Below, one piece after another: positions 2,877 through 56,268 of a stretch of DNA of 64,000 bases. Where the stretch lies: the NCBI GenBank assembly GCA_037310415.1, contig CP147780.1, forward strand, positions 416,001-480,000. The letters are read 5' to 3'. Every line of letters starts with the position of its first letter. Positions within the stretch are counted from its first letter, which is position 1. This DNA comes from Candidatus Atabeyarchaeum deiterrae (GTDB lineage: Archaea; Asgardarchaeota; Atabeyarchaeia; Atabeyarchaeales; Atabeyarchaeaceae). The notes beneath the pieces are model-generated. The model did no database searches. It worked only from the letters and a program-made list of their open reading frames with translations, and was not told the origin of the DNA. The position numbers and the translations under genes are program-made.

Positions 2877-3071
2877 ATGAAAGGAAAAGCTTGCAGAAAC
2901 TGTCATCTGATTGCAAGTAGAAGCAGCAGACAGTCATGCGAAGGATGCAAGTCTTCTGACTTCTCCACAGACTATCAAGGCTTCGTCATAGTGATGGATC
3001 CAAATGGATCTACGGTGGCTGGGAAACTTGGTGTAACGAGGAAAGGATGGTATGCCATCAAGGTTAGGTAA
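2877..3071 (+). CDS. spt4: Transcription elongation factor Spt4 (RpoE'')
   Basis: KACRNC...CEGC zinc ribbon, YAIKVR end. Confidence 0.9.
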   Translation: MKGKACRNCHLIASRSSRQSCEGCKSSDFSTDYQGFVIVMDPNGSTVAGKLGVTRKGWYAIKVR

Positions 3072-38479: not shown

Positions 38480-38654
38480 GCAGGGGTAGCCAAGCCGGTC
38501 AAAAAGCAAGGTTTCGGCCTAAGGCGGTGGACTCAAGATCCACTCTCGAAATGGATGAAACGCAAAGAGGCTAAAAATGCGTTCCACGGGAAGGAGTTCG
38601 AGGGTTCGAACATCCTCTTTCACAAGAGGTTTGGAAATCCCTCCCCCTGCACCA
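38480..38654 (+). tRNA. tRNA-Leu(CAA) with three BHB introns (38503-38521, 38551-38592, 38611-38637)
   Basis: Removing the three BHB-bounded inserts gives an 87-nt cloverleaf: GCAGGGG/CCCCTGC acceptor, GTGGA-CTCAAGA-TCCAC, long variable arm, encoded CCA. Confidence 0.93.
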
Positions 38655-38761
38655 ATAATCTGCTCAACAATATTCCCAAAGACTAACGCTTCAATACGCT
38701 TTCTGAATCATGTAGGTAAATCTCAGTTCGCAACATCAACTGTTGAAGTGTGAAATTACGG

Positions 38762-39442
38762 TCACTTCACATCCACTATCGTTCCGACCTTTTCCCCCTT
38801 TGCTGCAAGCAAAATGTTATTGGGATCAAAACCATTAACTACGATTACCTTTGCCTTCTGACTTTCAAGTATCTGAATCGATTGGAGATCCAATATCTGA
38901 TGCATTCCAGGTGTATGGGTTTCCTGAGTGACTGTCTTATAGAGGTCGATATAGGTTAGTTTGTCCAACTTCCTAGCGTCAGCGAACTTCTTAGGATCCT
39001 TGTCAAAGATACCATCTTGATCTGTTGCTTTTACCATGAGTTTTGAGCCAGTAGATCTGAGAACCAGAGCCGCGACAGTATCAGTTGTAATCCCCGGTTT
39101 CAACCCACCCATGACAACGATCTTACCAGCGACAAGTAGCCTCCTAACCTCCTCAACAGTAGAAGGAATCTGCCTTGAACTGTACTCACGAAGCTCTCTA
39201 GCAAGCAATTGACAGTTCAACCTCGAAACCAAGATGGCGATCTCATCTTTATCCTCATCTGATAGCCCCATCTTCTGAGCAACAGATATAAACTCCCTCG
39301 CCACTTTACCACCGCCCACGACCACGACAAGCTCATGCCGCTCATTCTTGAGCGATCTCAAGACTTCAGAATACCTGAGTATGAGTTCGGGATTCAATGG
39401 AGAGGCAATGACTGAGCCACCAATCTTAACCACGATTTTCAT
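38762..39442 (-). CDS. pyrH: UMP kinase
   Basis: VKIGGS, GGGKVAR, PGITTD, DGIFDKDP. Confidence 0.92.
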   Translation of the reverse strand: MKIVVKIGGSVIASPLNPELILRYSEVLRSLKNERHELVVVVGGGKVAREFISVAQKMGLSDEDKDEIAILVSRLNCQLLARELREYSSRQIPSTVEEVRRLLVAGKIVVMGGLKPGITTDTVAALVLRSTGSKLMVKATDQDGIFDKDPKKFADARKLDKLTYIDLYKTVTQETHTPGMHQILDLQSIQILESQKAKVIVVNGFDPNNILLAAKGEKVGTIVDVK

Positions 39443-39584
39443 TACTCAACCAACACCAGTGAGCGAATACATTCACGAAAGTTAAATACCTTGGTTGCTA
39501 AACGATATTTGAATAACCACTTTACGATTATATCAGTGTTACCTGTCCAACGCAAGAAAGCTATTACGGGGAGAAAAAGCAGAC

Positions 39585-40841
39585 ATGCCGAAGTACGACT
39601 CTTTCGAGAAGTTCAAACTTGAGAGGGAACTAGAAGCCCTTTCCAATAAGCATGGATTCCACACTGAACTTATCTCTCTCTACGTCCCTCCTGGAAAACA
39701 GCTCAGTGAAGTGACTAACAACTTGAAACAAGAATACGGCACATCAACAAACATAAAGTCGAAGTCCACGCGACAGCATGTACTCGATGCAATAACGACC
39801 ATCACACAAAGACTGAAGATGATGAAGACTGTTCCAGAAAACGGTCTAGCCATATTCTGTGGCGCGATCCCACAGAATGGGCAAGGAACCGAGAAAATGG
39901 AATTGTATCCGATAGTACCGCTGGAGCCAGTAAACATATACATTTACCGCTGTGACAACAAGTTCTACATCGATCCATTAAAAGACATGTTAAAGGAAAC
40001 AGAAACGTACGGCATAATCATGGTGGACCGGAGTGAGGCAGCTTTGGCCTCACTAAGAGGAAAGCATCTTGATGTTGTCAAAAGACTAACCTCTGGAGTC
40101 CCAAGCAAACACACCGCTGGCGGTCAGTCTCAGAGACGATTCGAAAGACTAATTGAGCAGGCAGTCCATGAATTCTTCAAGAGAGTCGGGGGACATGCAG
40201 ATGAGATATTTCTAAACGTGCCTGATCTAAAAGGAATTCTGATAGGAGGAGCTGGTCCAACCAAAGAGAGATTTGCCCAAGGGGGATTCATGAACTATCA
40301 GCTTCAGCAGAAAGTGCTTTCACTTGTCGACACTGGCAACTCGGGGGAAGATGGCATAGAGGAATTGATCGAGAATTCAAGTGAGCTCCTGAAAGGGGTG
40401 CGCTATACTGAAGAAAAGAAACTTGTACAGAGGTTCCTTGAACTCCTTGCAAAGGACACAGGACTTGCAGCTTACGGAGAGAAGGAAGTCCGGGAGCTTC
40501 TTAATCAAAGTACGGTGGATACACTTCTCCTGTCAGAGGCCCTAGATACTGTCAGAGTGACAGTGTCATGTGCCAGCTGTGGATATAAGAGAGAAGAGAC
40601 AATTCGCCAGTCTAATCTTAGCTCATTCCAGCAAACAGCTCAGAGTTCAACTTGTCCTAAGTGCAATTCCCCGCTTGCAGTAACCGAGACAAAGCCGATA
40701 CTAGATGATCTTGCAGAACTGGCTGAAAAGACGAATGCAAAGGTTGAAGTCATATCAACAGAGACTGAAGAGGGTCAGGAGCTAAAGCAAGGATTCGGGG
40801 GCGTGGCTGCCACACTAAGATACCGCCCTGCCAACTTATAA
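39585..40841 (+). CDS. prf1: Peptide chain release factor aRF1
   Basis: NIKS, YRCD, GGQS. Confidence 0.96.
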   Translation: MPKYDSFEKFKLERELEALSNKHGFHTELISLYVPPGKQLSEVTNNLKQEYGTSTNIKSKSTRQHVLDAITTITQRLKMMKTVPENGLAIFCGAIPQNGQGTEKMELYPIVPLEPVNIYIYRCDNKFYIDPLKDMLKETETYGIIMVDRSEAALASLRGKHLDVVKRLTSGVPSKHTAGGQSQRRFERLIEQAVHEFFKRVGGHADEIFLNVPDLKGILIGGAGPTKERFAQGGFMNYQLQQKVLSLVDTGNSGEDGIEELIENSSELLKGVRYTEEKKLVQRFLELLAKDTGLAAYGEKEVRELLNQSTVDTLLLSEALDTVRVTVSCASCGYKREETIRQSNLSSFQQTAQSSTCPKCNSPLAVTETKPILDDLAELAEKTNAKVEVISTETEEGQELKQGFGGVAATLRYRPANL

Positions 40842-40876
40842 CAGATTTAAATCCTGATAACTGCTCTTGTTCTGAG

Positions 40877-43379
40877 GTGATTACCATTTCTAAACCAGAA
40901 TTTGGAGAGAAGCATTGGTCCGTTAAGACGGAAGAAGAAATACTGCAGAAGTGGAGAAGCAAGAAGAGCTACTCCTTCGACTTGAAGAATGGGAAGCAGC
41001 CGTTTTCCATTGACACACCTCCACCCTACGCAAGCGGTCGGTGGCACCTCGGTGGGGCAGTACACTACTCACAGATTGACATGATAGCTAGATGCAAGAG
41101 AATGGAAGGCTATGAGGTTCTCTTCCCGATGGGCATCGACCGAAACGGATAAGTCCCCCCCAAGTCGGAGAGACTCCGGATTACCGATCGAGGTTCAGGC
41201 GGAAAAAGAGTTCGGGGTTAAGATGAATGAAACACCCAGAGGGGAGTTCATAGAATTCTGCCACAACTTGCTGGACAAATACGAGGATGACATTTTATCT
41301 ATTTCAAGAAGACTAGGGCTGAGCTGCAATTCCCTGGAGCAGAAAGAAGTGTACAGAACTGACAGCCCCGAATACCGCAGGATAACTCAAGCAACATTCA
41401 TTAAACTTTGGAACATGGGCTTAGTATACGAAGATCGGAGGCCCAACAACTACTGCACGGACTGCGGAACCACAATAGCGGATGCAGAAATAGAGTATAG
41501 CGAAATAGAAACATCATTGAACTACATCAGATTTAGGATCGAGGGATCTAATGAGGAGATCATTATTGCCACTACCAGACCGGAGCTTCTCTGCGCCTGC
41601 GCTTGCGTGTTAGTTCACCCTTCTGACGAGAGATATAAGAAATTTCACAAGAAGACCGCACTAATCCCGATTTATGAAAGGAATGTGCCAATAATAGCTA
41701 ATCCTGCTGCCCAAATGGAGTTTGGAACGGGGGCGGCAATGATCTGTTCGTATGGTGACTACACTGATGTCAGACTCTACAGAGAACTTCAGCTGGCGCC
41801 AGTGGACGCCATAGATCATAACGGGAGAATGACGGAAGCTGCAGGAGAACTTAAAGGACTCAAAATACCTGAAGCAAGAAAAGAGATGGTGGCAAAGCTA
41901 AGACACCAAAGCGCATTGATCAAACAGGAAAGAATAATGCACAGGACACCCGTCTGTTGGCGAACAAGAACCCCCATCGAATTCATTGCAATGTCGGAGC
42001 TATATTTGAAACAATTGGATTTCTTGGGAGAATTAAAGAAGACAATCGACAAAATGGAATTCTATCCCCCACCAAGCAAACACATCCTTTCAAGCTGGAT
42101 TAACTCCGTAAGCGTGGACTGGCCGATAAGCAGGAGAAGATACTACGGTACAGAAATTCCATTGTGGTACTGCCTAAAGTGTGGTAAGCCCGTCGTTCCA
42201 GAACCCGGAGAATACTACCAACCATGGAAGGATGCCCCACCGTTCGTTAAATGCTCCCACTGCGGTGCGAAAGAAGGCTTCAAGGGCGAGGAAAGAACCT
42301 TTGACACATGGTTTGACTCAGGGATAAGTGAACTTCAAATCCTCGGTTATCTAAGAGACGAAGAATCTTTCAAGAAGCTATTCCCTTGTTCAATAAGACC
42401 TCAAGGGAAAGACATAGTCCGGACGTGGTGTTACTATTCAATCCTCAGAACCTACCAGCTCCTGAAGGAACGAGCATTCAAGAAAGTCTGGATAAGCGGG
42501 CATGTAATGGACGACAAAGGGGAAAGAATGTCGAAATCGCGCGGAAACGTAACGTGGCCTACCCCACTAATGGACAAGTACGGCGCAGACGCACTCAGGC
42601 TTTGGGGATGCCTGGAAGCGGGTTTGGGAAGCGATATTAGGTTCTCTGAACCCCGACTCGCAAGCGCTCACAGCTTCTTAACAAAGCTATGGAACATATC
42701 GAAATTCATATCGGCTTTTGCAGATCCTGCAGACAAGGACATAGAACTGCTGGCTTCAGATAGGTGGATACTGTCCGAACTTAATCAGATGGTCAATGAC
42801 GCAATTGAAGGATACCAGAAGTTGGACTTCAATATCCCAGCTACCAAGATACGGACATTCACATGGGAGACTTTTGCCTCTCACTACATTGAAATGGCTA
42901 AGGCGAGGGCATACAATAAGGGGAAGATCTTCCCCGAAGGGCAACAGAGAGGCGCGTGGTACACGCTTCACATGTGCCTTAAGACGATAATAATGGTACT
43001 AGCACCCATATGCCCCTTCATAACTGAAGAAATCTACGGGGGATTGTACTCACAGGAGGAAAGCATACACCACCAGTCTTTTCCAAAACCAAAAAAAGAA
43101 TGGGAAACACCACTCAGAACACTTACTCCTCTCATCATGGAGGCAAACAGCGCAATTTGGAAAACGAAGAAGGACAACAAGCTGCCACTGAATGCCCCAG
43201 TAAAGACGCTTTATCTGCCACAGGAACTCGAACAACTGGGGGAAGATCTCAAAAGAATGCATAATGTGGAAAACATAAGCTTTAAACCACCTGCAAAGAC
43301 ACTAACAGAGAAAGAGAAATACATAGTTGTAAAGATCGATCAAAGCAAGAGACAGAGTCAGATATTCATCAGCATCTGA
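40877..43379 (+). CDS. valS: Valyl-tRNA synthetase, interrupted by a 31-nt insertion (join 40877..41150, 41182..43379)
   Basis: Exon 1: IDTPPPYASGRWHLG...GIDRNG; exon 2: LPIE..., TTRPEL, DWPISR, DTWFDS, RPQGKDI, RMSKS. Start may be ATT at 40886. Confidence 0.9.
41151..41181 (+). other. Putative BHB/BHL-type pre-mRNA intron in valS
   Basis: ACGG/CCGG central helix, AT^A and AT^T bulges, AGTC/GACT inner stem; removal restores GGA-TTA-CCG. Confidence 0.75.
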
Positions 43380-43472
43380 AAACAATGCCTCAATAAATCT
43401 TATATTGGCAATCATCATACCAGAAAAACATAACAACAAACTAATTAAGAATGAAAACAAAGGTCGCTCAGT

Positions 43473-43658
43473 GGGCCCGTAGCTCAAAGTGGAGGAGAAT
43501 GAAAGCAAGCTTCCACTGGCAAAGCTTGGCTGGAGCGTTCGGCTGAGCATCTGGGTAACTTTGCCAGATGGGCAACTAACCGAATAGGTTGAGGAAAAAC
43601 CTGAAAAGAACCTTACCCTCGGGGCAGGTCGCGAGTTCGAATCTCGCCGGGCCCACCA
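43473..43658 (+). tRNA. tRNA-Ile(GAT) with three BHB introns (43487-43523, 43547-43576, 43585-43625)
   Basis: Spliced 78-nt cloverleaf GGGCCCG...TTCGG-CTGATAA-CCGAA...CGGGCCC-ACCA. Confidence 0.9.
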
Positions 43659-43687
43659 CTTCTCTATCCAAAAATGTTTGTTGAGTT

Positions 43688-43796
43688 GGGCCGGTAGTTC
43701 AGACTGGAAACCACCTTGCAGTGACTAAGGGTGAACATAAGATACGCCGGCTTCGCAAGCCGGAGGTCGTGGGTTCAAATCCCACCCGGTCCACCA
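43688..43796 (+). tRNA. tRNA-Ala(CGC) with one D-loop intron (~43710-43740)
   Basis: CCGGC-TTCGCAA-GCCGG anticodon arm, G3:U70, CCA; removing 31 nt makes it colinear with the intronless Ala(TGC). Confidence 0.9.
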
Positions 43797-43838
43797 CAAG
43801 TGATCATTCCAGAAAGTTCTCGGAGAGAAACTTTCACC

Positions 43839-43853
43839 ATAAAGCTTATTATA
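43839..43853 (+). promoter_or_regulatory. Probable BRE/TATA promoter for the 16S transcript
   Basis: ATAAAGCTTATTATA upstream of the 16S leader. Confidence 0.5.
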
Positions 43854-44060
43854 TGAACATCGCCTTTAGCATAGACTTGCACAGGTTTTTCGCAGCGAAC
43901 ATCAAACGGCGTCGACCCTAACAGCGGTTGAAAACCTGTGGATGAAGGGTTGTTTTTCCACTGCGAAGAATCAGTGACGAGTAGTCATGAGGACCTAAAC
44001 AAACCGACAGCATGGCTGCCGGAAACTTGGGTCTGATGTGGGCTCAGAGTGAACCCCCAA

Positions 44061-45682
<1,622 letters not shown>

Positions 45683-45791
45683 GGGGACTGAGCCCACCAA
45701 CAACTCATTTCTCCTTCCTTCCCTGATTTGTGGCTTGACCTCTTAACTGATTATGCGGCAATTCTGCTCCAGACACCAGTTCTCGTTCTTT

Positions 45792-45808
45792 GAGAAACTC
45801 TTTAAAGT
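45792..45808 (+). promoter_or_regulatory. Probable BRE/TATA promoter of the spacer selenoprotein gene
   Basis: GAGAAA-CTC-TTTAAAGT about 65 nt upstream of the CDS. Confidence 0.5.
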
Positions 45809-45870
45809 ATGCTGCATTCGTCATATCATCACCATATGCCACTATCTTGTTGATAGGAAGCGTGCGTCTA

Positions 45871-46104
45871 TTGAAACCGAAGCTTCTGGTGAAGTATTGC
45901 GGAGTCTGAGGTTCAAGCTCTGCTACTAGGGAATTGCTTAGGTCTGTCGTTCCGAGCCTAAAAGGGAAAGTCGATCTTGAAGCGATTAGAGAGGACGGCG
46001 CTCATCCGGAGATTCGCGTAAACGGTAAGAAAGTTGCGGCAGACTACAATAACGTGGAGTCGTTGAAGAAGGCACTCCTGACAACCTTGGACAGACTCAA
46101 GTAA
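45871..46104 (+). CDS. SelW/Rdx-like selenoprotein (CxxU; in-frame TGA at 45907-45909)
   Basis: MKPKLLVKYCGVUGSSSATRELLRSVVPSLKGKVDLEAIREDGAHPEIRVNGKKVAADYNNVESLKKALLTTLDRLK; SelW-type YCGxUG and EIxVNGK motifs; downstream SECIS. Start could be GTG 45862. Confidence 0.85.
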
Positions 46105-46124
46105 TGGTGAAAAGAGCCGGCACG

Positions 46125-46175
46125 CCCTGATGACTCCTTCTCCCAAAGGCGCAATGTCACGGAGGGGATGAAGGG
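46125..46175 (+). promoter_or_regulatory. Eukaryote-type SECIS element (form 2-like)
   Basis: ATGAC (46130-34)/TGAA (46169-72) core, TCCTTCTCC/GGAGGGGA helix, unpaired AAA (46145-47), apical GGCG/TGTC mini-stem. Confidence 0.8.
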
Positions 46176-46271
46176 AGGGAAGCCCCCTGGATCAAATGTC
46201 TGTGGCAACGCTTGTCGAATAGACGAGCAAACCTTTGAACATTCTCAAAATGTTCTCCCACTTGATAACCA

Positions 46272-46286
46272 TAATACTTATAAAAG
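46272..46286 (+). promoter_or_regulatory. Probable separate TATA promoter for the 23S transcript
   Basis: TAATACTTATAAAAG followed by a ~250-nt structured leader whose 3' part pairs with sequence downstream of 23S. Confidence 0.5.
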
Positions 46287-46553
46287 ATCTCTGGCACTAC
46301 TCTTGATTTGCAGCAGAGAGACCTAATAACCGATGGATACTCTCTTGACTGCAGTGACGATTTACCGAGATGCAACTCGGGAGGAGCGGTGGAGAACACT
46401 TCTCTCGGGTGAAGGGCACAGTGGGGATCAGCATAGCGGACGTTCCCACAATGACTTGCCACGCATACATTCCACCAAACAGGAAAAGATCGTACAAGCT
46501 GAACAAAGGAGTTCTAACACTATCCGGACCGAGGTTACGAGTAAGGTCTGATA

Positions 46554-49658
<3,105 letters not shown>

Positions 49659-49826
49659 GCAGGCCTGAAAGCCCTCGGTCTGGGTGAATTTAGATCTCCC
49701 ATTTATTGTTCGGCGGGTGGAATTCTGTGCGTGGTGATCTCCTCATTTCTCTTGGACTAGTCAATCCCATGTTTGCCCCCTTGTTGATGGAAATTCTTAT
49801 TTGACATTCCTCGTAAATGTATTCTT

Positions 49827-50239
49827 GGAGTTAGGACGTGGGAGCGCGGCTGCCGGTGCCTTTCTTTCTCTTTGAGGAAGCTAGGTGCTGAGGAAGGTCT
49901 CCCCTCCACCAGACTTCGGTGCAGCGAAAGCTGCGAGGCGAGAGCCTCGCTCCAGGATCAGAAACGACACGTCCACACGTGAAATGACTATGATGCGGTT
50001 GAGGCGATGCTTACAGTGAGCGTCTCCGAGCAGGAGCCAGGGTAACCTAGCTCAATAACCCGCTGAGGATCCTTGTGGGAGCGGTGAAACGGCCTGCCAC
50101 CGAGGAGAAAGCCCAAATAGGCTGTGGATGATGCGTCTGGCTGAACCAGCGGGTAGGGTGAGTAGCTGGATGCCGCAAAGGGTGTTTCGGCGACGAAACA
50201 TCTGGAACAAAAGGGGGCCTACTACCCACACCTGACTCC
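49827..50239 (+). ncRNA. rnpB: RNase P RNA
   Basis: P1 GGAGTTAGG..GTGGG / CCCAC..CCTGACTCC; GAGGAAGGTCTCCC and AACAAAAGGGGGCCTAC P4 strands; TGAAACGGCC, GAGAAAGCCCAAATAGG. Confidence 0.9.
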
Positions 50240-50371
50240 CTTCTTTTTCATCTAGTTGAAGGCGCTCGGCTGACGAATAGTTCCAATAACATTAGGCTGA
50301 ATCTCAAAGTCGAATGTTATCAATTCCAGACTGGTTTGACTTCTAATTTCTTGCACGCAATGACTAGCGGT

Positions 50372-51919
50372 CTATCCTTGACGTCTCTTTATGGGCTTTC
50401 TTGCACGCTGGCTAGTGAGGAGAAATATGCAGAACACGAAGACCGCTGCAACATCCACTGCTATCGCAAGCAATACGTATTCCGCGGCTTGAAACTGGTA
50501 CGTCAAGTATTGTACACCATTTAGATTCTTTACTAGGAAGACATCTGAATCGCTATCTTCGGTGCCAAATACCGTACCAGTGAAGTAAACGTCGCCACTG
50601 TCAGAAATAGCAACTGATTCAGCTGATTGCCCCCTTGAGCCACTACCCCAGATTCCACTCATGATCATATTCCCGGAAGTATCGTACTCATTGATGAAAG
50701 CTCTGGGAGTACCAGCTGATCCGTCAGTTGAGAAGCTTGACGTCTCGCCGCAGAGGTATAGTTCGTTTTTCATTGAGATACTGAGTGAATTCACCGTCTC
50801 TGATTCTGGTCCTCCCCAAGTTCTGTTCCAGACTTGATTTCCATCTGTGTCGTACTTTAGGAGAAATGTGTCCTGGCTACCCGCGCCATAGCTACTTGTG
50901 GATCCTGCGACGTATGTTGCTCCATCAGCGGTACATACGGCGTATGCAACATCGTCCAGGGTTCCTCCGTAAGTTCTGTTCCATATCTGTTCTCCAGACA
51001 TGTCATACTTGGCGAGAAACGCATTCAAGTCGGGTTTATCACTCAAGAATCTTCCTAGGTAGCCTGCAACGTATACGTAACTATCTGCTGAGATGGCGAC
51101 CGATGTAGCTAGATCCAATACTGGGGTCGCAGTCCATCCGAGGCCGTACGGGTCGTACAGGCTCGTGCCCCAGTTTCTTCGCCATAAGATCTCACCGTCG
51201 GAACTGCACTTGACAAGAAGAGCGTCTACATCTACAAGTCCATGACCAGTCTGCCAGTACTCACCCATTTCAAGCCCGCCAGCGATGTATATGTCCCCAT
51301 TTTCGTCGACTGCACCCGAAAGCCACTGCTCTCCGTGAGTCACCCAATAGAATCGATCATGAACATATGGCGGAGAAATGAACCACACCAAGTTACCTGA
51401 TGAGTCATATTTGGCTAGAAGTATGCCTGGTGCAATCCTATGACTCTCGGACACCTTTCCACAGGCTACCTCGCCTACAACGTAAATGTAGCCGTCGTCG
51501 GATAAGACGACATGATTCCCACGGTCCGTGCTTTCGAATCCATACTGAGTACCGTCATCCAGTGTTCTGTTCCAGACCAAGAGCCCTCTCCAATCGAACT
51601 TCATGAGAAGTAGGTCATCCTCAGCGCTGAAGCTCCTCGTTGATCCAGTCACATAAACGTATCCGTCACGGGACACGGCAACGGATCTTGCTTCATCGTG
51701 ACCGCCTCCACCCCACATTGTGATCCATGAGTTGGAAGAGGGTGCTGCTATTACTTGCTTCGCAAACTGAATCTCTGAAAAGGGCATTGATACTGAACAT
51801 AGCAACGTAGCTACAAAGAACGCTGACATTAGCTTCAGATGAAGGTTGCGCGAGGGTTTGGAGTTTGACAAAGAATATATCAGTCTTCCTGATGCATTAG
51901 TTGGAGATTGCCAATGCAA
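50372..51919 (-). CDS. Membrane-anchored beta-propeller (SBBP-like repeat) surface protein
   Basis: About seven repeats of DG.VYV.G...D..L.KYD..G...WNRT.GG; N- and C-terminal hydrophobic segments; true start may be ~51829. Confidence 0.82.
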   Translation of the reverse strand: MHWQSPTNASGRLIYSLSNSKPSRNLHLKLMSAFFVATLLCSVSMPFSEIQFAKQVIAAPSSNSWITMWGGGGHDEARSVAVSRDGYVYVTGSTRSFSAEDDLLLMKFDWRGLLVWNRTLDDGTQYGFESTDRGNHVVLSDDGYIYVVGEVACGKVSESHRIAPGILLAKYDSSGNLVWFISPPYVHDRFYWVTHGEQWLSGAVDENGDIYIAGGLEMGEYWQTGHGLVDVDALLVKCSSDGEILWRRNWGTSLYDPYGLGWTATPVLDLATSVAISADSYVYVAGYLGRFLSDKPDLNAFLAKYDMSGEQIWNRTYGGTLDDVAYAVCTADGATYVAGSTSSYGAGSQDTFLLKYDTDGNQVWNRTWGGPESETVNSLSISMKNELYLCGETSSFSTDGSAGTPRAFINEYDTSGNMIMSGIWGSGSRGQSAESVAISDSGDVYFTGTVFGTEDSDSDVFLVKNLNGVQYLTYQFQAAEYVLLAIAVDVAAVFVFCIFLLTSQRARKPIKRRQG

Positions 51920-52123
51920 AGTAACTGAGGAGCCTTCCCTTAAGTTTTCCGTTGGTTTCGGTGTAAAATGCGGTGTTCTGGCATCGCTTTTTTGGTTATC
52001 TTACGGTGAATCGCAGATTTGTGTGTCGTCTTTTGGATTTCTTACAGTGTCCTGTAATGGCTTCTATACTGCTGGTTTCTTGATAGCTCAGACCGAAATA
52101 AGACGGATTGAGCCAAGTCCTCT

Positions 52124-52969
52124 TTAGTCAGCCAAGGCCAGAAGTTTCTCTATGTTCCCTGAGTCGTCGCGTCGTTCGTCGACTGGCGTCTCCATTATGA
52201 ATGGCAGGTCCTGTAATCGTTTTTCATGCAGAAGGACTCTAAATCCTTTTTCGCCGATTCTTCCTAATCCTATGTGTTCATGTCTGTCTATGCTCGAATT
52301 CAGATCTCCTTTTGAATCGTTCATGTGTATGACTTTCAACTTCTTAATTCCGATCACATTGTCCAGATGATTTATCGTGTTGTTTATGACTTTCTCATTT
52401 CTAAGGTCGTAACCTGAGGCAAACGCGTGTGACGTATCAAAACAGATACCTATTCTTTCATTGTGTTGTTCTGTCCCTTCTATTATTGATTGGATTTCCT
52501 CAAATCTTGAACCCATGCTGTGTAGCGTTCCAGCGGTGTTTTCAAGAAGAAGTATCACCTTGTTCTCCACCTCTGATAAGGCGACGCCCAAAGCGTTCAG
52601 TATGTTCTTGAGACCTGCTTCACGACCCTTTCCTAGGTGACTTCCTAGATGTGTGACCAGAAAGGGGATTCTCAGTCGCTCACATCTCTTAAGCTCCAAT
52701 TTGAGGGCATATATGGATTTCCTGTTTATTGCCTTTCGAGGGGAGGCAAGGTTTGCTAAGTATGGCATGTGAGCAACTACTGGATCAATCCCACTTTTGT
52801 GGACTTTCTCTACGAATCTTGATGCGACATCAATTGATATGGGTCTGGACTTCCACTGTCTCGGGTTTGTGGTGAAAATCTGAAAAGTAGTGCAACCCTT
52901 CTCTGAAGCTCTGTCTATTGCCATGTCTATTGATCCTTGAATGGACACATGAACTCCGATGCGTAGCAA
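52124..52969 (-). CDS. nfo: Endonuclease IV (AP endonuclease)
   Basis: IGVHVS, HMPYLANL, LENTAG, DTSH, HMNDS, DRHEHIG, METP. Confidence 0.94.
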   Translation of the reverse strand: MLRIGVHVSIQGSIDMAIDRASEKGCTTFQIFTTNPRQWKSRPISIDVASRFVEKVHKSGIDPVVAHMPYLANLASPRKAINRKSIYALKLELKRCERLRIPFLVTHLGSHLGKGREAGLKNILNALGVALSEVENKVILLLENTAGTLHSMGSRFEEIQSIIEGTEQHNERIGICFDTSHAFASGYDLRNEKVINNTINHLDNVIGIKKLKVIHMNDSKGDLNSSIDRHEHIGLGRIGEKGFRVLLHEKRLQDLPFIMETPVDERRDDSGNIEKLLALAD

Positions 52970-53091
52970 CGTGGTCCCTACCTTTCGTTTCCCGAATCAA
53001 GTAAAGAGATGGGTACTTTTCATGTTTGGAGTAACACAATGTAGCCGCATTTTCTGTGCCCTAATACTAGCGGGATCCTCAATTCGGTGGT

Positions 53092-53571
53092 TTAGTCTGA
53101 CCTGGGTTCAAATCGGTTGAGTTCCAAGAAGTTCTTACCCCATCCAAACTTGGAGAGCAACTCGTCGGCTTGTTCATGTTCTCCGCACTCAATGAGAGCG
53201 CCTGCAAAGGCCTCAACTGTACTCAACTTATTCCATACGCCATAGTTGATCGGGTTACCAGCCAACATTTCCCGGAGTCGTCTTTTTCTTCCTCTGATTC
53301 TGAATTTTAAAATCTCGCCTGCATTCTCCCAGGAGCAGTCGATTGCAACTAGTCCATATCGAATTACGTTATACTGATCATCTTTTGTCAGAACCATGTT
53401 TGAAAACGGGTCTAGCACAATAGAACTCCGTGATATGTGTGAGAGTCGATCTATGCGTTTAGCTAGACCAAGTCTCAACAACTTCAATGCAGTGCATTTC
53501 TTCGGATCACATTGTGATGCATGATAGACGTATAGCTTCACTTTGCCATGAATCCTGGTCTGGTCACTCAA
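53092..53571 (-). CDS. tsr3: 16S rRNA aminocarboxypropyltransferase Tsr3
   Basis: QCDPKKCTA, DCSW, AGNPINYG..KLSTVEA, FGWG..FLELN. Confidence 0.9.
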   Translation of the reverse strand: MSDQTRIHGKVKLYVYHASQCDPKKCTALKLLRLGLAKRIDRLSHISRSSIVLDPFSNMVLTKDDQYNVIRYGLVAIDCSWENAGEILKFRIRGRKRRLREMLAGNPINYGVWNKLSTVEAFAGALIECGEHEQADELLSKFGWGKNFLELNRFEPRSD

Positions 53572-54529
53572 TTTTTGATTCCTCTCGGCTCTTTTCCAGT
53601 CTCTCCATGGCTGCTGCTACGATCAAGGGAAAAGCGATTGTGGCGTCTCCTATTACGTCAACCCACTCAGCTTCAGGTTTCACTTTGCCCCAAGACTGAG
53701 CTTCTTGAAGCGAAGCACCGCTTAGTCCGCCTGGCTCCGGTCTATCCATTGTGATTTGTATTGCGTAATCAAGTGCCTTACCTGTTAGCATAGCGGACTG
53801 AAGAATATAGTTCTTCGGTACGCCACCTCCCAGGAACACGGCACCGATTCTCTTTGATTCAAAATAAGTATCGATCATTTTCTGGAGATCTTTTCTCAAG
53901 TCTACTCTCAGGTCGTTCTGCTGAGAATAGATCCAAATGTGGAGTCCTAAAATCGAGTCGAATATTGCGGGACAGAATATGAGAGTTCGATTCCTTGCTG
54001 CTGTTCTCAGAATTGACTCATCGTCATCCAGCATAAGTCCGATCTCTCGCAGTAGTTCATAAGAGCCCAGTCCTTGCCTGCGCTTGTCCTGGTCTATGGA
54101 AGTGAAATACTCCTTCAACTTGCTCTCTAATTCCTCGAAAGCTTCATCCCTGACAAAAGCATCAAAAATCCGGTTTATTCTCATTTCTCTGAGCGCGGCG
54201 TCGCCAACTGAGGTAATATCTCTTTCATGTTTCCAACCGGAAGCTTCGACTAAGTCATGTGTAACGTTGGCGCCCGTGAGAACCAAGATGTCGACCATTC
54301 TATTCTCCACTAGATCCCTAATGACTTTTCTTAGCCCGCCGGGTACGAGAGCGCCAGCAACACCGACAGGCTTGAGGATTTCTTTGTCGGAGAGAATTCG
54401 TTCATAGATTTCTGCCCCCTTGCTTACTCGCCCAGCGCCAAATACCCCTGCCTTTCCCATCTCATCGACTAGTTCTCCGACACTCATGCCTGCGTGGATC
54501 CTCATTTGCTCAACGTATTTCCGCTCCAA
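53564..54529 (-). CDS. dys: Deoxyhypusine synthase
   Basis: TGANVTHD, INRIFD, GGGVPKN, GGLSGA...EAQSWGK, DATIAFP. Confidence 0.93.
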   Translation of the reverse strand: MERKYVEQMRIHAGMSVGELVDEMGKAGVFGAGRVSKGAEIYERILSDKEILKPVGVAGALVPGGLRKVIRDLVENRMVDILVLTGANVTHDLVEASGWKHERDITSVGDAALREMRINRIFDAFVRDEAFEELESKLKEYFTSIDQDKRRQGLGSYELLREIGLMLDDDESILRTAARNRTLIFCPAIFDSILGLHIWIYSQQNDLRVDLRKDLQKMIDTYFESKRIGAVFLGGGVPKNYILQSAMLTGKALDYAIQITMDRPEPGGLSGASLQEAQSWGKVKPEAEWVDVIGDATIAFPLIVAAAMERLEKSREESKIE

Positions 54530-54713
54530 GTCAATTCCACCGCCGAATAATGTCGACTTCAGGCACAGGAGATTGTTAACATAGCTTAATTGCTTGTGAG
54601 GTAGATATCAGTTTGGTCTCTCGGCAAATCTCTCCAGTAGATGAGTCTGAAACGAAATCACCTAAGGAAAGCCAGATTAGAAGTAATAAGATCGCTACCG
54701 GCTCGCATAAGGT

Positions 54714-54904
54714 TGGTAGCGGGGGATGGATTTGTCCTTCGTGGGAGTTGATCCCACGGATTTGAACCATCGATCTCAGGGTATCCCAGTGGGACATCTT
54801 ATGAGCCATCCGCAGGAGGATTTGGCTATCTCCTACTGCGGGATCTCCTGAGTGGGCCAACCTACCTCCTGATCCAGAAGTAAGGGTGCCTACCCTACCC
54901 CGCT
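54714..54904 (-). tRNA. Initiator tRNA-Met(CAT) with four BHB introns (54889-54852, 54835-54808, 54799-54783, 54761-54732)
   Basis: Spliced 78 nt AGCGGGG TA GGGTAGTCAGGAGATCCC G CAGGG CTCATAA CCCTG AGATC GATGG TTCAAAT CCATC CCCCGCT ACCA; A1:U72 and three G:C pairs in the anticodon stem. Confidence 0.93.
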
Positions 54905-55105
54905 ATTACGGGTGCGAATTATGTGATAGTTCTGAATGGTTACTCATATATTTTACTCTTTGGTTGCTGTCTCCTGTCAAAATAATCGTGTTCTCTACCT
55001 CTCAACCGGCGTCCAAGATTCATATTGCCAAAATCGGCTATGGCTTCCTTTTAGTCGAAAATAGCTGGCAGGGAATTGCAGAACTGGAAAATGATATCGT
55101 TGGAG

Positions 55106-55180
55106 TGGACCGGGTGGGATTTGAACCCACGACCTCCGGCTTGCAAAGCCGGCGCGGCTTCCAGCCTGCGCTACCGGCCC
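55106..55180 (-). tRNA. tRNA-Ala(TGC), intronless, CCA not encoded
   Basis: GGGCCGG/CCGGTCC acceptor, CCGGC-TTTGCAA-GCCGG, TTCAAAT T-loop. Confidence 0.94.
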
Positions 55181-55218
55181 ACCATAGGAGCCGTTCACTA
55201 GCGAAGATAAGGATTGAG

Positions 55219-55330
55219 GGCCGGGAGCGGGATTTGAACCCGCGTCAAGGGCTCCACAGGCCCCTAGGCTAACCACTCTTGAGACGCTACCCAGCTACTC
55301 ATCGATGGGGAGCGTTATCCCATCCCGGCC
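55219..55330 (-). tRNA. tRNA-His(GTG) with encoded G-1 and a 39-nt D-arm intron (55316-55278)
   Basis: GGGGC-CTGTGGA-GCCCT arm, C73; BHB TGGG/CTCA with AT^A and AG^A bulges, ACGCT/AGCGT inner stem. Confidence 0.9.
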
Positions 55331-55463
55331 ACTTGAACGATCTTTCATTGTAGACGAGGATTAAAGATTTTGTCACTTTTCTTATAAACTCTTTGACCTG
55401 CAACTGCGTAACGATGTCTGACCAAGGATCATCGCCAACGAAAAATAGGAGAGGCTAACCAAG

Positions 55464-55766
55464 TCATTTGAAAAGTCCTTGTAGAACTATTGCAGATGTG
55501 AATAGGGCCCGGTTGCCTCCTACATAATAGGCTATTCTCAGTGCTTCGACAATCTCTTCTTTGGTGGCCCCGACTTTCATGGCTCTCTGACCCAGTGCGG
55601 TGGCTCCTTGTGTTGCCCCATGCTCCGCATCTAATGCCATGGCTATTAGTAGCTTGACCCTTTGGGGTAGTACTCCTTCTGACAAAGCTGTACTTTGTAG
55701 ATGATCGAAGCATTCCATCACTTTCGGATCGAATTTCCTGTAGATATCCATAGGATTACCAAACAT
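55464..55766 (-). CDS. Carboxymuconolactone decarboxylase/AhpD-like protein
   Basis: L..RVKLLIAMALDA, GATKEEIVEAL; no CxxC. Confidence 0.85.
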   Translation of the reverse strand: MFGNPMDIYRKFDPKVMECFDHLQSTALSEGVLPQRVKLLIAMALDAEHGATQGATALGQRAMKVGATKEEIVEALRIAYYVGGNRALFTSAIVLQGLFK

Positions 55767-55923
55767 GATATCACCAATGGCACAGTATAGAGCCGCCTAA
55801 ATAGGATTTGGCTTGTCATGGAGCGCCTCTGGGAAATGGATAGTTCGCTCTCCTATTTGGTAGCTTACTTAGAAGAATGAGTCGGCAAGCTCATGCCGAA
55901 TAGTCTAAGAATGTTTGACCAAG

Positions 55924-56268
55924 TGGTGCGGGGGGTGGGGTTCGAACCCACGCAGGCCTACGCCGATAGGTTTCCTAGAAGATTGCCTAGAGGTCTTGCG
56001 CCTTCTGGAGTCCCCCATAGTTTGGAAGAGTCTTTTCTGCCAGCCCCATTTCCAGTGGTATCGACCCTTACCATATCTCTCCCTCTGAGTTCGAGCAAGT
56101 GCTCACCAACGGCTGAGCCATGAGTGCCATCGTCCAATGTCACCGACGTCAAGGATTGCTTGACCAACTAGCGCATACGCTACCATTTTGTCTGAATAAG
56201 CAAGCTCTTTCATTCTGGGCAAAGTTCTCCTAAGCCTACCTCCTTTGACCAGGCTCGGACACCCCCGC
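55924..56268 (-). tRNA. tRNA-Leu(TAG) with a 257-nt intron at 37/38 (56228-55972)
   Basis: 5' half GCGGGGGTGTCCGAGCCTGGTCAAAGGAGGTAGGCTTAGG; 3' half ACCTATCGGCGTAGGCCTGCGTGGGTTCGAACCCCACCCCCCGCACCA; BHB CTTA/TAGG. Confidence 0.92.

Follow-up and report, generated by a model that had tools for sequence, protein, structure and literature searches.

How does a cell obtain a working valyl-tRNA synthetase (ValRS), an intact ribosomal sarcin-ricin loop and a set of usable transfer RNAs from genes that are broken by short runs of extra sequence? The question is raised by a 64,000-nt stretch of the genome of Candidatus Atabeyarchaeum deiterrae (contig CP147780.1, positions 416,001 to 480,000; hereafter the window), in which positions 38480-56268 hold seven tRNA genes, six of them interrupted by a total of 15 insert blocks, together with a valS gene broken by a 31-nt insert and a 23S rRNA gene carrying 34 extra nucleotides. 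We consider it likely that these inserts, and others in further genes, are archaeal introns of the endonuclease type, bounded by bulge-helix-bulge (BHB) motifs, cut by the tRNA-splicing endonuclease EndA and joined by the ligase RtcB.

The genome is that of Atabeyarchaeia-2, an Asgard archaeon of the class Atabeyarchaeia from wetland soil, which agrees with the supposition of a preliminary description of this DNA that the lineage is related to eukaryotes. The window, part of a single contig of 2,756,679 bp, contains a 16S-23S operon and an RNase P RNA gene and is archaeal, and the coordinates of its tRNAs are identical to those in Supplementary Data 4 of Valentin-Alvarado et al. 2024 (PMC11291895), where the table 'SRVP_Atabeyarchaeota_2' lists Leu-CAA at 454480-454654 and Leu-UAG at 472268-471924. 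The published genome is complete and underwent curation, with checks against Illumina, Nanopore and PacBio data, and introns were reported in 92-95% of the tRNA genes, often several per gene and at non-canonical sites (PMC11291895); a 2026 census preprint (10.64898/2026.10.13.758758) gives ~2.2 inserts per tRNA gene. Consistent with this published intron richness, aragorn run without intron models calls just seven tRNAs in the whole genome. DNA sequencing runs that match 0.84-0.92 of the words searched exist for this genome, as do RNA runs from the same studies at the source site. The intron-rich tRNAs of Atabeyarchaeia were already published in 2024, with the exception of tRNA-Ile(GAU). For comparison we use Atabeyarchaeia-1 (G001), a third Atabeyarchaeia species (G002) and Odinarchaeum (G003), beside Atabeyarchaeia-2 itself (G000).

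Junctions of the inserts

A total of 17 junctions were defined without reference to any motif, from the cloverleaf, from the reading frame or Pfam profile, or from rRNA alignment; the mature tRNAs were derived first from cloverleaf rules and their junctions scored for BHB only afterwards. Each score combines a 4-nt central helix H with an exon helix h, an intron helix h' and bulges of 3 nt in which the cut follows the second base. Thirteen of the 17 junctions score as BHB, including 11 of the 15 tRNA blocks, where a BHB or relaxed BHB sits exactly at the junction. A random junction pair in the window does so with P = 0.010 (three inner pairs, q>=6), which corresponds to a binomial P of ~5e-17 with three registers per junction allowed for. 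A single rule, by which each strand is cut behind the second base of its bulge, restores the ValRS profile, the sarcin-ricin loop and the tRNAs. The motif is strict in the 23S insert (H 4/4, h' 5) and in tRNA-Leu(UAG) (H 4/4, h 6, h' 3), and a relaxed geometry, with three base pairs and a purine-purine outer mismatch, an h' of 3-8 pairs and a cut after the second bulge base, is shared by valS and the three introns of tRNA-Ile. Most of the preliminary description holds in this light: the interruption of six of seven tRNAs and the two introns at 37/38 were confirmed with their coordinates, the A.A, G.A and A.G outer pairs in tRNA-Ile and the A.G pair in valS were found again by junction scoring, and the 13 junctions bear out BHB-type inserts in tRNA, rRNA and an mRNA gene. 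Its count of 15 BHB insertions, 13 of them in tRNAs, needs revision, as the tRNA total is now 15 blocks, 11 of them with BHB; the single inserts that it placed in 23S rRNA and in valS both stand.

valS is the sole ValRS gene in the genome. Its N-terminal open reading frame (ORF), 40877-41149, runs into a TAA at 41150-41152, and the 31-nt insert, which starts with TAA, shifts the frame; upon its removal positions 73 and 74 of the Pfam profile tRNA-synt_1 abut exactly (the profile resumes from 41181 onward). In the predicted fold, helix H consists of the A41145.G41179 mismatch followed by C46-G78, G47-C77 and G48-C76 (numbered by the last two digits), the bulges are A49 U50^A51 and A80 U81^U82 (^ marks the predicted cut), and the intron stem pairs A52-C55 with G72-U75 (AGUC/GACU). 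An insert of 31 nt stands at the same valS site in all three Atabeyarchaeia species (72-73% amino-acid identity between them). In two of the four pairs of the h' stem both partners differ between species (G-C to A-U and U-A to C-G), and across the three species 97% of the stem cells are paired, compared with 15-51% when the partners are slid. Outside the class the motif GxDRNGLPxE runs uninterrupted in all eleven relatives examined, comprising nine Asgard genomes and two metagenome relatives (67% and 57% identity), the latter being the only ones that a metagenome search for further valS introns returned.

The insert in the 23S rRNA gene lies in the sarcin-ricin loop, the GTPase-activating site of the ribosome, which binds translational GTPases, so that the term 'GTPase centre' used in the preliminary description was apt. 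Alignment with seven other Asgard 23S genes places the insert at gene positions 2794-2827 (window 49342-49375), close to the BHB register given in Table 1. It splits the universal sequence AGUACGAGAGGAAC, which is restored by excision in three species; the insert is present in both G001 and G002, and all other Asgard 23S genes fetched carry AGUACGAGAGGAAC intact. The junctions read CUCAGUACGAG ^ A GGGCAAGAGUGCUGUGUGCACCUGCUCC GUA AG ^ AGGAAC and form a perfect HBh' motif, in which helix H (UACG/CGUA) has four Watson-Crick pairs, both bulges are AG^A and h' has five base pairs; on the exon side the motif passes into the non-canonical part of the loop instead of a Watson-Crick helix. G002 has A in place of G at the second base of the 3' bulge; a cut at the predicted bond nevertheless gives the universal loop there, which a cut further 5' would not. 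The 23S gene of G001 has five inserts of 32-106 nt that most relatives lack (gene positions ~1938-1970, 2099-2147, 2714-2745, 2846-2951 and 3017-3050), only the last of which, in the sarcin-ricin loop, is shared with Atabeyarchaeia-2, and that of Odinarchaeum has a 30-nt insert at ~2036-2065.

Elsewhere in the genome glyA, gatE, a radical SAM gene and mtnP are split at BHB motifs inside conserved motifs, which brings the interrupted protein genes, valS included, to at least five. A census by ORF merging, a form of the genome-wide scan for BHB-split genes that the preliminary description had suggested, did not discriminate. It started from 2.6 million relaxed BHB candidates and asked whether removal merges two coding-like open frames, and its hits equalled those of shifted-junction decoys at every stringency (25,335 versus ~25,000; at the strict setting 91 versus 75-111).

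Table 1. Positions of the interrupted genes, their inserts and neighbouring RNA genes (window numbering unless marked genome; ^, splice junction)
Feature	Position and length	Strand	Remarks
valS exon 1	40877-41150	+	~91 codons, ending ...FPMGIDRNG; Pfam tRNA-synt_1 positions 2-73
valS candidate intron	41151-41181 (31 nt)	+	relaxed BHB
valS exon 2	41182-43379	+	LPIEVQAEKE... to stop; tRNA-synt_1 positions 74-414 and Anticodon_1
23S rRNA gene	46549-49663	+	Rfam LSU_rRNA_archaea, 2836 bits
23S candidate intron	49344-49377 (34 nt; BHB register)	+	in sarcin-ricin loop, AGUACGAG^...^AGGAAC
glyA candidate intron	652709-652749 (genome; 41 nt)		removal joins SHMT profile 54 to 56, split codon between
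gatE candidate intron	2222226-2222266 (genome; 41 nt)	-	strict BHB; CLVEA^DDEPPH
Radical SAM gene candidate intron	919007-919059 (genome; 53 nt)	-	strict BHB; CxxxCxxC restored, CNLTCP^WCQN
mtnP candidate intron	938160-938197 (genome; 38 nt)	-	DVVG^MTAYPE
tRNA-Leu(CAA)	38480-38655	+	CCA encoded; spliced 87 nt, aragorn tRNA-Leu(caa)
Leu-CAA introns	38503-38521 (19 nt, D-loop); 38551-38592 (42 nt, variable arm); 38611-38637 (27 nt, T-loop 59/60)	+	all H 4/4
tRNA-Ile(GAU)	43473-43658	+	spliced 78 nt, aragorn tRNA-Ile(gat)
Ile intron 1	43487-43523 (37 nt, 14/15)	+	3 bp + outer A.A; h' 8 bp
Ile intron 2	43547-43576 (30 nt, 35/36)	+	3 bp + outer G.A; h' 7 bp
Ile intron 3	43585-43625 (41 nt, 43/44)	+	3 bp + outer A.G; h' 3 bp
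tRNA-Ala(CGC)	43688-43796	+	77-nt tRNA-Ala(cgc) (aragorn) with both blocks removed
Ala-CGC D-arm blocks	43710-43732 (23 nt); 43737-43745 (9 nt)	+	neither with recognisable BHB
RNase P RNA	49834-50233		400 nt versus 288-position model
Initiator tRNA-Met	54714-54904	-	spliced 76 nt; A1:U72, three G:C pairs in anticodon stem
Initiator BHB introns	54808-54835 (28 nt, 29/30); 54783-54799 (17 nt, 37/38); 54732-54761 (30 nt, T-loop 58/59)	-	BHB at junctions
Initiator D-arm blocks	54861-54888 (28 nt); 54846-54857 (12 nt)	-	no recognisable BHB
tRNA-Ala(UGC)	55105-55180	-	only uninterrupted tRNA; aragorn and Rfam tRNA 60.4 bits
tRNA-His(GUG)	55219-55330	-	G-1 encoded; one intron
His intron	55278-55316 (39 nt, 13/14)	-	H 4/4, h' 5 bp; boundaries as in published table
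tRNA-Leu(UAG)	55924-56268	-	one intron
Leu-UAG intron	55972-56228 (257 nt, 37/38)	-	strict hBHBh': H 4/4, h 6, h' 3; boundaries as in published table

Splicing enzymes and competing explanations

Two PF01974 (EndA) genes, at ~215.5 kb and ~625.4 kb, are present in the genome, encoding a 238-aa alpha and a 198-aa beta subunit. The alpha subunit keeps the Tyr/His/Lys triad (VYQ...DHA...RKK; residue numbering presumed), has its best matches in 3P1Z_B, 3AJV_B and 2CV8_A, and shows its highest similarity to catalytic subunits from A. pernix, S. tokodaii and P. aerophilum (1.9e-46); it aligns ungapped with A. pernix alpha over YYGQP..(K)P....F..P..LSL, a stretch that we take to be the extra, crenarchaea-specific loop of the catalytic subunit, which may permit cleavage of relaxed motifs. 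In the beta subunit Thr occupies the catalytic His position of the M. jannaschii EndA (1A79) alignment. Judged by these sequence features, the enzyme is of the (alpha-beta)2 broad-specificity type. Endonucleases of the (alpha-beta)2 and epsilon2 types are described as cleaving non-canonical motifs (PMC5829648). RtcB is encoded once (one PF01139 match, 582 bits, in a 495-aa open frame). The broad-specificity endonuclease and RtcB invoked in the preliminary description are therefore both encoded; its statement that one system controls maturation goes too far, as no evidence of regulation was seen and dependence is all that the sequence conveys.

In the mechanism that we propose, the precursor RNA would fold so as to place the splice sites in 3-nt bulges flanking a 4-bp helix (in several cases 3 bp and a mismatch), the heterotetrameric (alpha-beta)2 EndA would cut each strand after the second bulge base, and RtcB would ligate the exons, a pathway that is well established for tRNA. 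Beyond tRNA genes, such introns would in Atabeyarchaeia have come to occupy the coding sequence of valS, the 23S sarcin-ricin loop and, elsewhere in the genome, at least gatE, glyA, mtnP and the radical-SAM gene. That these RNAs are cut and ligated we infer strongly from their sequences, and the valS and 23S inserts very probably have to be excised by the tRNA-splicing enzymes; with the inserts in place, neither the sarcin-ricin loop nor the initiator tRNA nor the single copy of valS could be functional. Functional ValRS, ribosomes and most tRNAs, the initiator included, would then depend on this one enzyme pair. The bolder notion that EndA and RtcB form an obligatory genome-wide RNA maturation system that gates, and possibly regulates, translation, amounting to a simple mRNA splicing control near the eukaryotic ancestor, strikes us as improbable.

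Several observations weigh against BHB splicing as a common explanation. The valS motif is relaxed, with A.G as its outer pair, its exon-exon helix is weak, displaced by an internal loop and not contiguous beside the 3' bulge, and its fold is no more stable than shuffled sequence (z = +0.9); the covariation in its stem comes from three sequences only, and the observed score is reached by 53 of 500 shuffles. Among the tRNA blocks, four of the 15, all in the D-arm (two in tRNA-Ala(CGC), two in the initiator), have no recognisable BHB. Finally, the ORF-merging scan gives no intron count, because ordinary adjacent genes pass equally often.

The same ValRS protein could be made without splicing if the ribosome bypassed the insert in the manner of phage T4 gene 60, peptidyl-tRNA-Gly hopping from GGA at 41147-41149 to GGA at 41178-41180. 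A matched GGA...GGA take-off and landing pair, a stop after take-off and a hairpin in the gap exist in all three species, the direct repeat CGGAU makes the hop formally possible, and gatE also has a permissive 4-nt direct repeat, AGAC. However, hopping cannot be the general mechanism, since no repeat is present at the junctions of the radical-SAM insert; the near-palindromic central helix (ACGG/CCGG) accounts for the repeat in valS, and the tRNA and 23S inserts share geometry and cut rule with valS, yet translation is irrelevant there. We know of no translational bypassing in archaea and regard it as a very improbable account of valS. Equally hard to credit is a valS break that is an assembly or sequencing artefact, or a valS that has become a pseudogene or encodes two separate polypeptides; the frame is indeed interrupted, and the downstream frame has an opening ATG at 41112, but exactly 31 nt recur at one site in three species whose genomes were assembled independently, with substitutions that preserve the structure, and the source genome was curated and checked with data from three platforms (PMC11291895). 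Moreover, valS is single-copy and essential, the downstream frame of G001 has no ATG before the junction, and the break falls within the Rossmann-fold core.

Retention rather than excision has also to be weighed for the rRNA and for part of the tRNA blocks. Large expansion segments are known in Asgard rRNAs (Penev 2020, cited in PMC12918454), and the RNase P RNA of the window has lineage-specific hairpins that look retained, so that the 34-nt element of 23S could be a retained expansion segment of this kind. In that event, however, the universally conserved, GTPase-binding sarcin-ricin loop would stay split. The flanks of the element pair perfectly over 4 bp and carry two AGA bulges, and the predicted excision gives back the universal sequence in each of the three species, the bulge variant of G002 included; the chance that the element is retained appears slight to us. 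A more substantial doubt attaches to the four D-arm blocks of tRNA-Ala(CGC) and the initiator, which may, with a likelihood somewhat below even, not be EndA substrates at all and instead leave by another route, require ordered splicing or persist in the mature tRNA. No BHB scores for them in any equivalent register, two are only 9 and 12 nt long, and a substantial minority of D-arm inserts lacks a canonical motif in the census preprint (10.64898/2026.10.13.758758). Against this, retention would destroy the D-arm, removal yields textbook D-loops, the initiator blocks are kept with a covarying hairpin in three species, and a broad-specificity EndA accepts relaxed motifs that a simple scorer may miss. 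For valS, 23S and the remaining tRNA blocks, excision by EndA and ligation by RtcB is the reading that we favour.

The tRNA genes and their neighbours

Freed of their inserts, all six interrupted genes give normal tRNAs with the expected anticodons according to aragorn. The blocks are distributed as three in tRNA-Leu(CAA), three in tRNA-Ile, two in tRNA-Ala(CGC), one each in tRNA-His and tRNA-Leu(UAG) and five in the initiator; introns at the canonical position 37/38 are found in tRNA-Leu(UAG) (257 nt) and the initiator (17 nt). Six of the genes (Leu-CAA, Ala-CGC, initiator Met, Ala-UGC, His and Leu-UAG) are already in the published table for the same genome, which gives one intron by tRNAscan and three by R2DT for Leu-CAA, and three instead of five blocks for the initiator and one instead of two for Ala-CGC (PMC11291895); tRNA-Ile(GAU) appears only here. 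The published table has only a doubtful Ile-TAT in its place, ours is the only Ile(GAU) gene found, and it was probably overlooked by tRNAscan-SE owing to its three relaxed introns. Both G001 and G002 keep the gene, its exons identical and its introns diverged; in G001 the same three introns are joined by a fourth in the T-loop, seen in that genome only. The outer pair of the 35/36 intron is G:C in G001 as against G.A in Atabeyarchaeia-2, which supports this position belonging to helix H. The tRNA-Ile/tRNA-Ala pair lies ~1.7 kb downstream of valS in G001, with extra DNA between, as against ~100 nt here.

The tRNA-Ala(CGC) ortholog in G001 is compact and lacks both D-arm blocks. A single-intron parse of the gene through a strong BHB at 43702-43728 was rejected, since the D-loop would be deleted and the compact ortholog favours two blocks; this BHB is probably unused. 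A 9-nt intron is also listed for the tRNA-Ala(CGC) of Freyarchaeia (PMC11291895). The 9-nt block here (43737-43745) and the 12-nt block of the initiator (54846-54857) are too short for a BHB of their own, and both initiator D-arm blocks recur in G001 and G002, where an internal hairpin has undergone compensatory changes. For tRNA-His a two-intron parse was discarded, as the BHB sits at the published single 39-nt intron. The 257-nt intron of tRNA-Leu(UAG) is far longer than the other introns (9-53 nt); its interior shows no Rfam match, long ORF or unusual folding, and the idea of a tRNA nested within it was rejected on the same lack of an Rfam match and unremarkable folding.

The aRF1/eRF1 gene (39585-40841) lies directly upstream of valS and is followed on the same strand by valS, two tRNAs, the rRNA operon and the RNase P RNA gene, a dense cluster of translation genes. 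Introns were considered and rejected for the RNase P RNA, whose three lineage-specific hairpins recur in each of the three species and look retained, one of them (50178-50203) covarying under a GCGA tetraloop. The tip of its P3 (49867-49882) forms a formally perfect hBHBh'.

Relation to known archaeal introns

No report of BHB introns in Asgard protein genes or rRNA was found in a literature search that left most subscription journals uncovered and returned only cbf5 of Crenarchaeota (PMC2738675) and general reviews, and neither PMC11291895 nor the census preprint (10.64898/2026.10.13.758758) mentions introns in protein-coding genes or 23S rRNA. In the searchable literature, endonuclease-type splicing of coding sequence in archaea is documented essentially only for cbf5; here an essential aminoacyl-tRNA synthetase, at least four other enzyme genes and the ribosomal sarcin-ricin loop are interrupted alike, throughout the class. 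If these inserts are indeed spliced, the tRNA machinery would routinely splice protein genes in archaea that rank among the nearest known relatives of eukaryotes, with a bearing on how introns spread and were tolerated before there was a spliceosome. Gene callers fragment these genes, and tRNAscan-SE missed tRNA-Ile(GAU), so annotations and metabolic reconstructions of these lineages are systematically affected.

Archaeal rRNA introns, known from the 16S and 23S genes of Desulfurococcales and Thermoproteales, are bounded by BHB motifs, interrupt functionally central regions and are removed by EndA. Compared with these, the 23S insert described here is a micro-intron candidate of 34 nt without an ORF, it lies within the sarcin-ricin loop, and its host is an Asgard archaeon. 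The cbf5 pre-mRNA intron of Crenarchaeota (Watanabe 2002; Yokobori 2009, PMC2738675) resembles the valS insert in being short and BHB-bounded, in the frame that its removal restores and in the (alpha-beta)2-type EndA of its host; the valS insert likewise lies in coding sequence, terminates the unspliced frame and is restricted to a clade (3/3 Atabeyarchaeia, 0/11 outside). The two differ in that splicing has been demonstrated by experiment for cbf5 and is predicted for valS, and in that the valS insert occurs in an Asgard archaeon, has a relaxed A.G motif and belongs to a genome with five or more interrupted protein genes. As for the tRNAs, Atabeyarchaeia and Freyarchaeia have multi-intron genes with non-canonical positions (PMC11291895; 10.64898/2026.10.13.758758), just as observed here, and independent accumulation of tRNA introns in Asgard archaea has been inferred (10.64898/2026.10.13.758758). 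A parallel to such tRNAs is found in Thermoproteales and A. pernix (Sugahara 2008; Hirata 2011, PMC3241643; PMC5829648), with which Atabeyarchaeia-2 has in common the non-canonical sites, the relaxed motifs (HBh' or hBH) and an EndA that is predicted to be heterotetrameric and presumed to carry the extra loop in its catalytic subunit, whereas in Atabeyarchaeia-2 several mRNAs appear to be affected as well.

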